Virus record (IMG/VR): IMGVR_UViG_2609460219_000010
Span: 1 to 39,097 of that record
Reading direction: 5' to 3' (one strand)
Length of the DNA: 39,097 bases
Source of the DNA: a virus
Taxonomy: Duplodnaviria > Heunggongvirae > Uroviricota > Caudoviricetes
Within the stretch, counting starts at the first letter, position 1, and every line of letters starts with the position of its first letter. Below are positions 33,687 to 37,608 of the stretch, piece by piece. A model generated the notes under the pieces. It was not told where the DNA came from and searched no databases. It worked only from the letters and a program-made list of their open reading frames with translations. Position numbers and translations under genes: made by a program.

Positions 33687-34363
33687 CACCGGACATTATC
33701 CTGCAGCGTACCGGGATCGACGTGAGAGCTGTCGAACAGGGGGATGATGCGTGGCACAAATTACGGCTCGGCGTCATCACCGCTTCAGAAGTTCACAACG
33801 TGATAGCAAAGCCCCGCTCAGGAAAGAAGTGGCCTGACATGAAAATGTCCTACTTCCACACCCTGCTGGCTGAGGTTTGCACCGGTGTGGCTCCGGAAGT
33901 TAATGCTAAGGCGCTGGCCTGGGGAAAACAGTACGAGAACGACGCCAGAACCCTGTTTGAATTCACTTCCGGCGTGAATGTTACTGAATCCCCGATCATC
34001 TATCGCGACGAAAGTATGCGCACAGCCTGCTCTCCCGATGGTTTATGCAGTGACTGCAATGGCCTTGAGCTGAAATGCCCGTTTACCTCCAGGGATTTCA
34101 TGAAGTTCCGGCTCGGTGGTTTCGAGGCCATAAAGTCGGCTTACATGGCCCAGGTGCAGTACAGCATGTGGGTGACGCGAAAAGATGCCTGGTACTTTGC
34201 CAACTATGACCCGCGCATGAAGCGTGAAGGCCTGCATTATGTCGTGATTGAGCGGGATGAAAATTACATGGCGAGTTTTGACGAGATGGTGCCGGAGTTC
34301 ATCGAAAAAATGGACGAGGCACTGGCTGAAATTGGTTTTGTATTTGGGGAGCAATGGCGATGA
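33683..34363 (+). CDS. exo: Exo 5'-3' exonuclease
   Basis: 226 aa, near-identical to my recollection of lambda Exo. Confidence 0.95.
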
Positions 34364-34707
34364 CGCATCCTCACGATAATATCCGGGTAGGCGCGATCAC
34401 TTTCGTCTACTCCGTTACAAAGCGAGGCTGGGTATTTCCCGGCCTTTCTGTTATCAGAAATCCACTGAAAGCACAGCGGCTGGCTGAGGAGATAAATAAT
34501 AAACNGGGGGGCTGTATGCACAAAGCATCTCCTGTTGAGTTAAGAACGAGTATCGAGATGGCACATAGCCTCGCTCAAATTGGAGTCAGGTTTGTGCCAA
34601 TACCAGCAGAAACAGACGAAGAATTTCATACGTTAGCCACATCCCTTTCACAAAAGCTGGAAATGATGGTGGCGAAAGCAGAAGCAGATGAGAGAGACCA
34701 GGTATGA
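34354..34707 (+). CDS. small b-region ORFs (lambda orf61/orf63-like), fused in this reading frame across an N
   Basis: C-terminal 63 residues [21 protein letters not shown]... form an independent unit; an N at 34505 before a G-run affects whether the upstream ORF terminates in another frame. Confidence 0.5.
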
Positions 34708-35098: not shown

Positions 35099-35320
35099 AT
35101 GGCAGACATCATTGATTCAGCATCAGAAATCGAAGAATTACAGCGCAATACAGCAATAAAAATGCGTCGTCTGAACCACCAGGCTATATCTGCCACTCAT
35201 TGTTGTGAGTGTGGCGATCCCATAGATGAACGAAGACGCCTGGTCGTTCAGGGTTGTCGGACTTGTGCAAGTTGCCAGGAAGATCTGGAGCTTATCAGTA
35301 AACAGAGAGGTTCGAAGTGA
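35099..35320 (+). CDS. TraR/DksA-family C4 zinc-finger protein (lambda orf73-like)
   Basis: 73 aa with CCECG...CRTCASC four-Cys zinc-finger spacing typical of TraR/DksA C-terminal domains. Confidence 0.7.
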   Translation: MADIIDSASEIEELQRNTAIKMRRLNHQAISATHCCECGDPIDERRRLVVQGCRTCASCQEDLELISKQRGSK

Positions 35321-35568
35321 GCGTAATTCACTCTCAGGCACTGCGTGAAGCGGCAGAGCAGGCAATGCATGACAACTGGGGATTTGACGCGGACCTTTTC
35401 CATGAGCTGGTAACACCATCGATTGTGCTGACACTGCTGGATGAACGGGAAAGAAACCAGCAATACATCAAACGCCGCGACCAGGAGAACGAGGATATTG
35501 CGCTAACGGTGGGGAAACTGCGTGTTGAGCTGGAGACAGCAAAAATCAAAACTCAACGAGCAGCGTGA
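35317..35568 (+). CDS. hypothetical protein (b-region)
   Basis: 83 aa ORF, start overlaps upstream stop. Confidence 0.4.
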   Translation: MSVIHSQALREAAEQAMHDNWGFDADLFHELVTPSIVLTLLDERERNQQYIKRRDQENEDIALTVGKLRVELETAKIKTQRAA

Positions 35569-35866
35569 GTAGAAGGTGTTATCTCGGATGGAAGTAAGCG
35601 TATTGCTGAACTGGAGGCCTGGGTTGAATACACAAGAGCTGCATACGTAAGAGCAAAAGACAAGGGAGATTTGATCAGAGTTATTACCAGCCAACCAACG
35701 GGATTTTACGCTTACGTACCATGTAATTAGGAATCCTTGAAGTGGCAGCCTAACTGCGGATACACTGAAATGGCGATTTGGTAACATGTTTCGCACAAGG
35801 GTGTTACTACGCTTAGAGATAATCAGCCATGATTAAACGCTTTGTAAAAAGTAAAAGGAAATTACA

Positions 35867-36481
35867 ATGAAAAAATCAATACTAATTTTAGGGCTTACGT
35901 TAATTGTCTCATCTCAAATACCATCGGCAATGGCNAAAAATGAATCAAAACTATGGGTTGTTGTTGATCGAACGGAAAGACATACCTGCCCTTCAAGTAA
36001 ATGTGGAGTGGCTGGGAAACTATTTTTCAGGGAAGGCGTAGATTTTCTAGAAAAAAAAGGTGAATGGGTTCGTATAACTGAGCCATATTCAGCCTCATGT
36101 GTTGGAGGGGAAAGCGAATATATTAAAGAAGGTAATAAATCCTGCACAAGAAAAAATGGAATCGTTAATGGCAAGTTTTCAGAATGGGTTAAACTTAGTG
36201 ATCTTAGCAGTGAAAGGCCATCAGATCCTGCTGAAAATGCGAGCGGAGATGATACTTTAATCAAAGGATCTGATGACTACCGTATATACAAAAAAGAGTT
36301 TTCTTCGGCAGCTAGGAAGTTAATAAATGAAGGGGTCTGCACGGAAAGCGATTTTAAGGAAATCGGAGGGTGGATGGCATCAAGCAATAAGGGTGAAAAC
36401 ATCTATTTCACATATTGCGGAGGAATGACGTTGTCGAACAGAATATACCTAGATGTTAAAAGTGGAAAGACTTTTAGATAA
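35867..36481 (+). CDS. secreted Cys-containing protein, AT-rich moron
   Basis: N-terminal signal peptide MKKSILILGLTLIVSSQIPSAM; AT-rich; AAGGAA RBS; strong terminator downstream. Confidence 0.55.
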   Translation: MKKSILILGLTLIVSSQIPSAMXKNESKLWVVVDRTERHTCPSSKCGVAGKLFFREGVDFLEKKGEWVRITEPYSASCVGGESEYIKEGNKSCTRKNGIVNGKFSEWVKLSDLSSERPSDPAENASGDDTLIKGSDDYRIYKKEFSSAARKLINEGVCTESDFKEIGGWMASSNKGENIYFTYCGGMTLSNRIYLDVKSGKTFR

Positions 36482-36551
36482 TATGATATTACCAATGACA
36501 GTATTGATTTAATGCCTCCATAGAATTATCTCTAGGAAGTAGGTATAAGAA

Positions 36552-36589
36552 AAGCCCGCACAATGAGCTGCTGCGGGCTTTGTGTTATT
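36552..36589 (+). terminator. intrinsic terminator after secreted-protein gene
   Basis: Perfect 9-bp stem AAGCCCGCA/TGCGGGCTT with 11-nt loop, followed by TGTGTTATT. Confidence 0.5.
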
Positions 36590-37108
36590 CGCCATATTTT
36601 ATGAAGCAAATACGACACTATAGATAATTAAGCGTTGCTGGTTGTCGATTCCTCAATCACTCCTGTGGATGACTCTCTTCTTGTATGTGCCATTGAAGGG
36701 GAATATCGCGTAAAAAGATACCGGAAGTATCCGCGCCGCCATTATTGTCTTTCTCCTGATGCAGGAAAAGCAGAATGATCCTACCCACGTAATATGGACA
36801 CAGGCCTAAGCGAGGTTCTGGTTTTCAAATTGTTCCGGACTGAGGCCGCCACACCAACTGTGCCACGCGTCGCTTCAGGCGTGCGCCTTGCGAGTTTGGT
36901 GAGTACATCGCGTTACTGAGCCGCCAGGATGATGCACGTGTGCGCTGGCGTATAAAATCGATCAGCAGAAAACGTTGCGGTAAGTGCGGCGAGAGAGTTC
37001 CTGTTAATTCATGCCCGTGTAATGGTGACTCACAATGCTGGGTGACCAAAGGCTGGCACGAAACAAAATTAATGATATAAATCTCTGTGACATGTCACGG
37101 AGGCGGCA

Positions 37109-37537
37109 ATGAAATTAGACCAGCAATATCTAAAAGATCTACTTATCGCATTCGAAAAAACTCGTGGCCCTGACACGATGCTTAGTGAACTAGAGGATAA
37201 TGGCTTTAATAGATATGACCAAGATTTTATTTTCCATATGCGATTATTATGTGACTACGAATTAATAGTCAGGGTTGATGGAAAACCTGGATTCGGTCAT
37301 ATAATGTCCAAAGCGTTAGGGGAAGGTGTTGGATATAGTTGGATCGAAGTACCACTGAGGTTGACAGCAAGAGGGCATGATTTTATTGCTGACTTACGTC
37401 AAAAGGATGTCTGGCAAGCTATAAAAACAAACTTTAAGGATGAGGGAATTAGTACACTTATGAGTGTTTCAAAATCACTAGCAAAAGGCTTTGCAAGGAA
37501 AAAGATAAAAGATATTACAGGAATAGATATTGAATAA
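37109..37537 (+). CDS. hypothetical protein, AT-rich moron upstream of xis
   Basis: 142 aa, strongly AT-rich, GGAGG RBS, own hairpin terminator. Confidence 0.55.
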   Translation: MKLDQQYLKDLLIAFEKTRGPDTMLSELEDNGFNRYDQDFIFHMRLLCDYELIVRVDGKPGFGHIMSKALGEGVGYSWIEVPLRLTARGHDFIADLRQKDVWQAIKTNFKDEGISTLMSVSKSLAKGFARKKIKDITGIDIE

Positions 37538-37582
37538 TTCTTAGCATCAAGCAACTACTGCCTTTGGTGGAAATTATATCTG

Positions 37583-37608
37583 AACTCGCTACGGCGAGTT
37601 TTGTTTTA
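37583..37608 (+). terminator. intrinsic terminator
   Basis: AACTCGC-TACG-GCGAGTT hairpin followed by TTGTTTTA. Confidence 0.45.

Follow-up and report, generated by a model that had tools for sequence, protein, structure and literature searches.

An exported two-domain protein is encoded in the prophage

The stretch of DNA analyzed here (IMG/VR virus record IMGVR_UViG_2609460219_000010, 39,097 nucleotides; referred to as the window) carries an open reading frame (ORF) of 204 amino acids plus stop codon on the + strand at positions 35867 to 36481. The ATG is the first start codon past the upstream stop, and an RBS, AAGGA, lies at 35855 to 35859, 7 nt 5′ of the ATG. A single ambiguous base in the ORF, an N at 35936, falls in a GCN codon, and residue 23 is Ala whatever the base. 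The product begins with MKKSILILGLTLIVSSQIPSAMA followed by KNESK. By inspection, this N-terminus divides into a positive n-region (MKK), an 11-residue hydrophobic core (SILILGLTLIV), and a c-region (SSQIPSAMA, followed by K) with Ala at -3 and -1. Residues 1 to 23 (35867 to 35935, + strand) are predicted to form a Sec/SPase I signal peptide cleaved between A-M-A and K, a reading taken from the sequence and from the low model pLDDT and anchored homologs described below. Six Cys residues are present in the mature product.

The initial annotation had described a 204-aa ORF with a signal peptide and several Cys, and the coordinates, the n-, h-, and c-regions, and the six mature Cys agree with that description. 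It had also called the RBS strong; an RBS is present, but its strength is good rather than exceptional. The claimed contrast in composition with the neighbors was confirmed, with a GC of 0.38 and GC3 of 0.30 for the ORF against a GC of 0.52 to 0.53 and GC3 of 0.58 to 0.63 for bet and exo. A PHROGs search matched the protein to phrog_8310 over 204/204 positions (E 1e-135), and the same protein is found in RefSeq as WP_000748282.1, an accession that is identical in relatives. These entries are labeled "unknown function" and "hypothetical protein," respectively, and give no functional information. Together with the purifying selection described below, the PHROG match and the near-identical annotations support the coding sequence. 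Two other readings of the locus were rejected. A lipoprotein is incompatible with the lack of a lipobox Cys (residues 1 to 40 are without any Cys); the LPAM_1 profile gave a sub-threshold match to the protein. An antisense ORF at 35914 to 36264 (116 aa) is not supported as coding, as substitutions between copies track the third codon positions of the + frame.

The gene lies between two gene remnants in the exo-xis segment

Gene order was established from Pfam scans of the window ORFs and from how near-identical records (phage Chlobot, E. coli LH10-b-1) are annotated. On the + strand, the order is bet, exo, DUF1317/DUF1382, a small ORF, TraR/DksA, a truncated Ea22, the 204-aa gene, an S24 peptidase fragment, DUF2513, xis, and int. 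The genes from bet to int are co-directional with the 204-aa gene, and torS is next in the chromosome. The gene is located in the exo-xis segment of the pL early-left operon. It had initially been assigned to the b-region; that label is wrong, with exo, DUF1317, DUF1382, TraR, and Ea22 on one side and DUF2513, xis, and int on the other. In E. coli LH10-b-1 (L002, 8806-12718), the integrase abuts torS, which marks the integration site of this prophage type, and the region upstream of bet has been replaced by structural genes of another phage, making it a rearranged prophage. At 34354 to 34707 of the window, DUF1317 and DUF1382 appear as one fused 117-aa ORF in which an ambiguous base gives an X. 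Near-identical genomes have them as overlapping but separate genes, and the fusion probably reflects sequence quality (N also occurs at 35936 and in int).

Both flanks of the gene are degraded. On the left, a truncated Ea22-like gene remnant occupies 35317 to 35568 on the + strand (Pfam Ead_Ea22, E 3.5e-20, profile positions 2 to 110 of 139). In a 99.7%-identical genome, the RefSeq annotation of this remnant is that of a frameshifted, incomplete gene, and homology to common Ea22-bearing prophages stops near 35616. On the right, an S24 peptidase (UmuD/HumD-like) remnant at 36632 to 36778 on the + strand has 83% nucleotide identity with an S24 peptidase gene that is intact on plasmid p09EL50 and appears in RefSeq as "DNA repair protein, incomplete." It adjoins a fragment of about 90 bp, at 36776 to 36864, that matches, at 96 to 100% identity, the termini of IS3-family elements annotated in many E. 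coli genomes. The position of this IS3 end beside the S24 remnant suggests an IS-mediated rearrangement of the interval. The homology breaks that delimit the cassette fall at about 35616 to 35725 and at 36483 to 36632. With a 3-kb query, the exo-xis flanks matched thousands of E. coli genomes, while the gene was found in 134 of 5,426 complete genomes; it is missing at the same position in most related prophages. A search for flanking repeats as insertion scars yielded only short matches at chance level. A second AT-rich cassette was noted at 37109 to 37601. It consists of the DUF2513 gene (GC 0.36, GC3 0.28, Pfam E 7.7e-11) with its own terminator-like hairpin at 37582 to 37601 and resembles another moron between the 204-aa gene and xis.

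Candidate signals for transcription of the gene

A hairpin with arms at 36551 to 36560 and 36572 to 36581 (AAAGCCCGCA and TGCGGGCTTT) begins 70 nt past the stop codon. It has a 10-bp perfect stem, an 11-nt loop, and a ΔG of -17.6 kcal/mol and is followed by TTTGTGTTATT. Perfect hairpins of at least 9 bp number 3 in the 39-kb window, against 1.3 expected from shuffled sequences. The hairpin and its T-tract (36551 to 36592, + strand) resemble an intrinsic terminator. The T-tract is interrupted, and a simple terminator scan made no + strand call here; on the - strand, it called a shorter version of the hairpin. Given the A-tract upstream of the hairpin, the structure could be a bidirectional terminator. 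The perfect 9-bp hairpin terminator of the initial annotation is thus present as a hairpin, with a stem one pair longer than claimed, and its role as a terminator is a prediction. Two inverted repeats were also seen, both at about chance level for the region: one of 12 nt around the hairpin (36524 to 36535 and 36618 to 36629, 92% complementary) and a perfect one of 10 nt around the ORF (35814 to 35823 and 36525 to 36534).

A consensus promoter scan of the + strand found none. The sole candidate is a weak σ70 promoter matching the consensus at 8 of 12 positions, with TTGAAG at 35737 to 35742, an 18-nt spacer, and TACACT at 35761 to 35766. It lies in a 142-bp upstream region (35725 to 35866, + strand) that contains the RBS as well and moves with the ORF, matching copies on P1/P7-like phage-plasmids at about 85% nucleotide identity from exactly 35725. 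In the P1-like copy, both hexamers are invariant and the spacer carries 5 substitutions; at 85% identity, 12 positions would be conserved by chance with a p of about 0.14, and the conservation of the hexamers is not statistically decisive. Across genera, the upstream DNA showed no conservation past the RBS/start region. An Rfam search around the gene gave no match. The lysogenic conversion proposed by the initial annotation would require transcription in the repressed prophage, for which this weak 8-of-12 match is the one candidate promoter. Whatever the status of its own promoter, pL read-through would transcribe the gene in lytic growth.

The protein joins an SH3b-type domain to an unnamed C-terminal module

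Structure prediction had been proposed as a check on the initial annotation. An AlphaFold model built with 48 homologs was confident (pLDDT 90.7), with values of 48 to 68 over residues 1 to 23 and above 95 from residue 27, where the fold begins; the signal peptide is disordered in the model. Approximately residues 27 to 116 (35945 to 36214, + strand) form an SH3b-type domain with a Cys-rich insert and inferred disulfides C41-C46 and C78-C93. Pfam SH3_3 (PF08239) scored 16.2 bits against the 204-aa protein, under the cutoff of 27. The same profile was found in 31 of 44 longer relatives, reaching an E value of 1.6e-14, and some relatives have a precomputed PF08239 assignment. The SH3b fold of the N-terminal half is strongly supported by these results. 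SH3b is the fold type that docks endolysins and autolysins onto peptidoglycan, and other ligands are possible too. In the known SH3b proteins (SH3_3 PF08239, lysostaphin, phage endolysins, and the N-terminus of NlpC/P60 proteins), the domain is attached to a catalytic domain that is absent from the 204-aa protein. In contrast with Gram-positive wall enzymes that carry SH3b, the protein is predicted to be soluble and periplasmic, in diderm hosts. Compared with classical SH3b, it adds an insert of about 30 residues and two disulfides, and its ligand binding is predicted.

The C-terminal alpha+beta domain, residues 122 to 204 (36230 to 36478, + strand), contains the motifs SDD, GGWxxS, YFTYCGG, and NRIYL and an inferred disulfide, C158-C184. 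Modeled alone, these 83 residues gave a pLDDT of 92 and a helix-helix-three-strand module. No relatives of the C-domain were found in BFVD, Pfam, NCBIfam, or PADLOC, and sequence matches in PDB were artifactual. PDB profile matches to de novo-designed four-fold TIM barrels were rejected as a repeat-summation artifact in which no single stretch passed the threshold; they rest on one helix motif, SDDxRxxKxAxxKxAxxLI. There is strong support for the C-terminal ~80 residues being an autonomous, unnamed alpha+beta module that also occurs alone, as lipoproteins of about 100 aa.

A widespread family of exported proteins carries the C-domain

An exhaustive profile search with the C-domain found 530 cluster representatives (clusters at 50% identity), 402 of them at an E value of ≤1e-10. 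This is a lower bound, and the family has 530 or more protein clusters. The domain is C-terminal in nearly all of the listed proteins; in an exception, P0151, it lies close to the N-terminus and precedes an Imm-like membrane domain. Of the 229 retrieved sequences, 134 combine the two domains; another 86 have only the C-domain, and many of these are lipoproteins of about 100 aa. The extra N-terminal parts are mostly anchors (zinc-ribbon plus transmembrane [TM] segment), with single cases of ankyrin, IalB, and Imm_superinfect. All sources label the relatives "hypothetical" or "exported hypothetical."

The Cys residues of the family come and go in pairs. In the 134 two-domain relatives, C41 and C46 are both present in 103 and both absent in 31, and C78 and C93 are both present in 107 and both absent in 27; neither pair is ever represented by a single Cys. 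C158 and C184 are present in 224 of 224. Since the three pairs are gained or lost only as pairs, they are inferred to form structural disulfides, which points to an oxidizing compartment. A signal peptide, lipobox, or TM anchor was found in 197 of the 216 relatives with enough N-terminus, and most exceptions are truncated gene calls. Species-level matches are confined to diderm lineages: Pseudomonas, Vibrio, Shewanella, Marinobacter, Rhodobacteraceae, Rhizobiales, Burkholderiales, Campylobacterota, Terriglobia, and Vampirovibrionales. Judging from the signal peptide, the anchored relatives, the paired Cys, and the diderm-only distribution, the 204-aa product is almost certainly exported to the periplasm. 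Strong support exists for the predicted course of Sec export and cleavage after Ala23, giving a soluble ~20-kDa protein that folds in the periplasm and contains three disulfides. The initial annotation had proposed a product acting in the periplasm or outside the cell, and these data bear out the export part of that proposal.

Copies on mobile elements appear to be maintained by selection

P1/P7-like phage-plasmids carry copies with about 90% protein identity, located directly 3′ of an intact S24 peptidase gene. The segment in common with the P1-like copies, about 85% identical, extends from 35725 to 36483, i.e., the 142 bp upstream plus the ORF, and ends at the stop codon. The hairpin lies outside this shared DNA, and the P1-like copy has a different terminator of its own. 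A comparison of the two 85%-identical copies gives 87 differences, 60 of them at third codon positions; by codon, 56 changes are synonymous and 22 nonsynonymous. Pseudomonas and Aeromonas homologs, also 204 aa long, have 60 to 69% protein identity. These substitution patterns indicate that the gene is intact and under purifying selection; a lack of conservation, which would have spoken against the initial annotation, is not what the homology search found. In the P1/P7-like plasmids (L079, 5763-6440; L080, 5174-5851), genes for a Tad2-like (anti-Thoeris) protein and a dUTPase are just downstream on the opposite strand, which places the homolog in an accessory or counter-defense neighborhood of these plasmids.

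Relatives were found on several other kinds of element. One in an Aeromonas prophage sits between the antiterminator and lysis genes, and small Pseudomonas islands carry one directly after the integrase. A 5.3-kb ColE1 plasmid of Citrobacter has a relative as its sole cargo gene, and prophage-like regions of Agrobacterium and Rhizobium encode the stand-alone C-domain form. Among sequenced phage genomes, 1 of 50,697 carries the gene. At least five kinds of mobile element have captured the family independently of one another. The family is mainly one of stand-alone envelope genes on chromosomes, repeatedly picked up by mobile elements, a conclusion drawn from the lack of a conserved partner, the varied neighbors (see below), and its presence in a single phage genome.

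Additional arrangements were recorded on plasmids and islands. IncA-type plasmids contain a captured exo-xis segment (DUF1317, DUF1382, TraR, the 204-aa gene, and DUF2513). In Citrobacter freundii pA18-1 (L081, 4847-8704), for example, it is flanked by Tn5403 and IS5 and neighbors trkG and an arsenic-resistance operon. Plasmids of Klebsiella, Enterobacter, and Citrobacter encode identical copies of the protein. The conserved Pseudomonas mini-island (L007-L011 and L003-L005) extends about 5 kb past the integrase. Besides this tyrosine integrase and the 204-aa homolog, it encodes proteins of 337 and about 236 aa and has ORFs of 105 and 130 aa. The ~236-aa protein, read by eye as putatively KilA-N-like, has no Pfam assignment on record, and the 337-aa protein has no Pfam match. 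In some genomes, this island is inserted near nadB and rpoE, and it might be a phage satellite.

Neighboring genes and comparisons with known families

Clustering of about 1,000 neighbors from 66 species-level loci revealed no conserved gene partner. A Pfam scan of the 150 immediate neighbors returned 129 different families, and the commonest, phage integrase, occurred only 4 times. Most of the species-level loci are in an ordinary chromosomal context, among housekeeping genes. A cognate toxin-immunity pair or other multigene system was considered and is unlikely, as no partner recurs across the 66 loci. Searches of the full protein against Pfam, NCBIfam, and PADLOC returned just the sub-threshold SH3_3 and LPAM_1 matches, and no defense, exclusion, toxin, or virulence family was matched in Pfam, NCBIfam, PHROGs, or PADLOC-DB v2. 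No match to lysozyme inhibitors or immunity proteins (Ivy, MliC/PliC, PliG, PliI, and Tsi/Tai type) was found by sequence or by fold. Literature searches by accession, phage name, and SH3b, periplasm, and exclusion terms found no work on the 204-aa protein. The initial annotation had allowed for a virulence-associated product. Family searches and the distribution of relatives provided no evidence of a virulence link, and a dedicated virulence role is made less likely by how widely relatives occur in free-living environmental bacteria.

A moron-type gene that may encode a wall-docked protective binder

The data strongly support a moron-type accessory gene that is intact, was acquired horizontally, and lies in the exo-xis part of a lambdoid prophage pL operon. 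It is regarded as horizontal cargo because it is AT-rich, lies between gene remnants, and is missing at this position from most related prophages; the cargo proposed by the initial annotation is borne out on the same grounds. Of the properties that define morons (PMC3594210), the gene shows deviating composition, absence from related phages, and a predicted terminator of its own. The feature is therefore of an ordinary kind, moron-like prophage cargo, with one uncharacterized domain. It resembles the envelope morons of other phages (lambda bor and lom, HK97 gp15, and φ80/N15 cor) in deviating GC, predicted terminator, exported product, and absence from related phages. It has no sequence or fold relation to any of them. 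In contrast to these genes, it maps to the early-left operon, not to the late or tail region, and its promoter is only a candidate.

For the function of the product, the reading that best accounts for the data is a moron-type, peptidoglycan-docked periplasmic binder that protects the wall, to which we assign a probability of roughly 0.4. With no recognizable catalytic domain or conserved partner gene, the protein would probably work alone as a binder. The SH3b domain, to judge from its fold, may hold the protein on cell wall peptidoglycan. The conserved C-module, rich in aromatic and Asp/Ser/Asn residues, would then bind a conserved envelope ligand, most probably a wall-degrading enzyme or the glycan strand. 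The carrier could benefit if its wall were shielded from lysozyme-type enzymes, from bacteriocin or type VI effectors, or from the wall-piercing enzymes of superinfecting phages. The components of this reading differ in strength. The anatomy and export are very probable. A noncatalytic, wall-associated binder has a little better than an even chance of being correct. A protective function for the wall is tentative and, taken by itself, would be a doubtful bet.

The wall-protective proposal was suggested by the resemblance in lifestyle to stand-alone periplasmic lysozyme inhibitors. Like Ivy, MliC/PliC, PliG, PliI, and T4 Spackle, which it does not resemble in sequence, the family consists of small, disulfide-bonded, exported proteins that are partner-less, occur in soluble and lipoprotein versions, are scattered in Proteobacteria, and have short invariant motifs. 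A broader version of the proposal makes the C-module the founder of a widespread portable protective class, an inhibitor or shield against wall-degrading enzymes that is delivered by SH3b and captured by phages, phage-plasmids, plasmids, and islands; this we consider rather unlikely.

The mostly ordinary chromosomal contexts of the family fit a housekeeping envelope role equally well, and they count against a protective binder. General envelope homeostasis, with the protein acting as a wall-membrane tether or stress factor outside any conflict, has a modest chance of being the correct explanation. The prophage copy would then be a chance acquisition and could be neutral baggage in E. coli, in line with a cassette that sits amid gene remnants. 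The varied membrane anchors (zinc-ribbon plus TM, lipobox) are those of tethering proteins, and most species-level loci lie among housekeeping genes. Capture by five or more kinds of mobile element, with purifying selection persisting there, is harder to reconcile with such a role, and the position of the gene as sole cargo of a 5.3-kb plasmid argues for a selectable, portable benefit. The same distribution bears on a role in the lytic cycle. T4 Spackle and RI exclude secondary infections, and a delayed-early product expressed from pL via N antitermination might similarly exclude them or tune wall and lysis timing from the periplasm. Its location in the pL operon, in the same direction as bet, exo, xis, and int, is consistent with such a role, as are the lack of a strong promoter of its own and the P1-like copies, which likewise follow a same-strand upstream gene. 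We nevertheless judge it quite unlikely: the family occurs on a ColE1 plasmid, in integrase islands, and at hundreds of chromosomal loci that have no phage lytic programme, only 1 of 50,697 sequenced phage genomes has the gene, and the terminator and AT-rich composition are typical of add-on cargo.

The ligand itself could be other than the wall. Superinfection exclusion by receptor masking, as with Cor and Llp, would have it bind a protein of the outer or inner membrane that incoming phages use. A small, exported, disulfide-bonded, prophage-encoded protein with lipoprotein variants in its family suits this mode of action, and one relative is fused to an Imm_superinfect membrane domain. That fusion is just 1 of 44, however, and no sequence match to the Cor, Llp, SieA, or Imm families was found. 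Moreover, identity between E. coli and Pseudomonas reaches 69%, and the motifs are near-invariant across Alpha- and Gammaproteobacteria and Campylobacterota; such cross-class conservation fits a universal ligand better than a lineage-specific receptor, and receptor masking is accordingly very unlikely. Finally, the C-domain might be catalytic, its conserved Ser-Asp-Asp, Ser, Asn, and Tyr making the protein a small wall-modifying enzyme targeted by SH3b as in endolysins. The pairing of SH3b with a second domain mirrors the architecture of wall hydrolases, and several polar residues are invariant. We hold this highly improbable, as an 80-residue module of helix and three strands does not resemble the known hydrolase folds and families, the invariant Cys pair shows the pattern of a structural disulfide, and it would be hazardous for a prophage to secrete a wall hydrolase constitutively.

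If the wall-protective reading is correct, the proteins would be a new family among the few periplasmic wall protectors of Gram-negative bacteria and would represent a new kind of benefit that prophages and plasmids bring to their hosts. Whatever its function, the C-module is missing from Pfam and PDB and merits a family entry and a structure.
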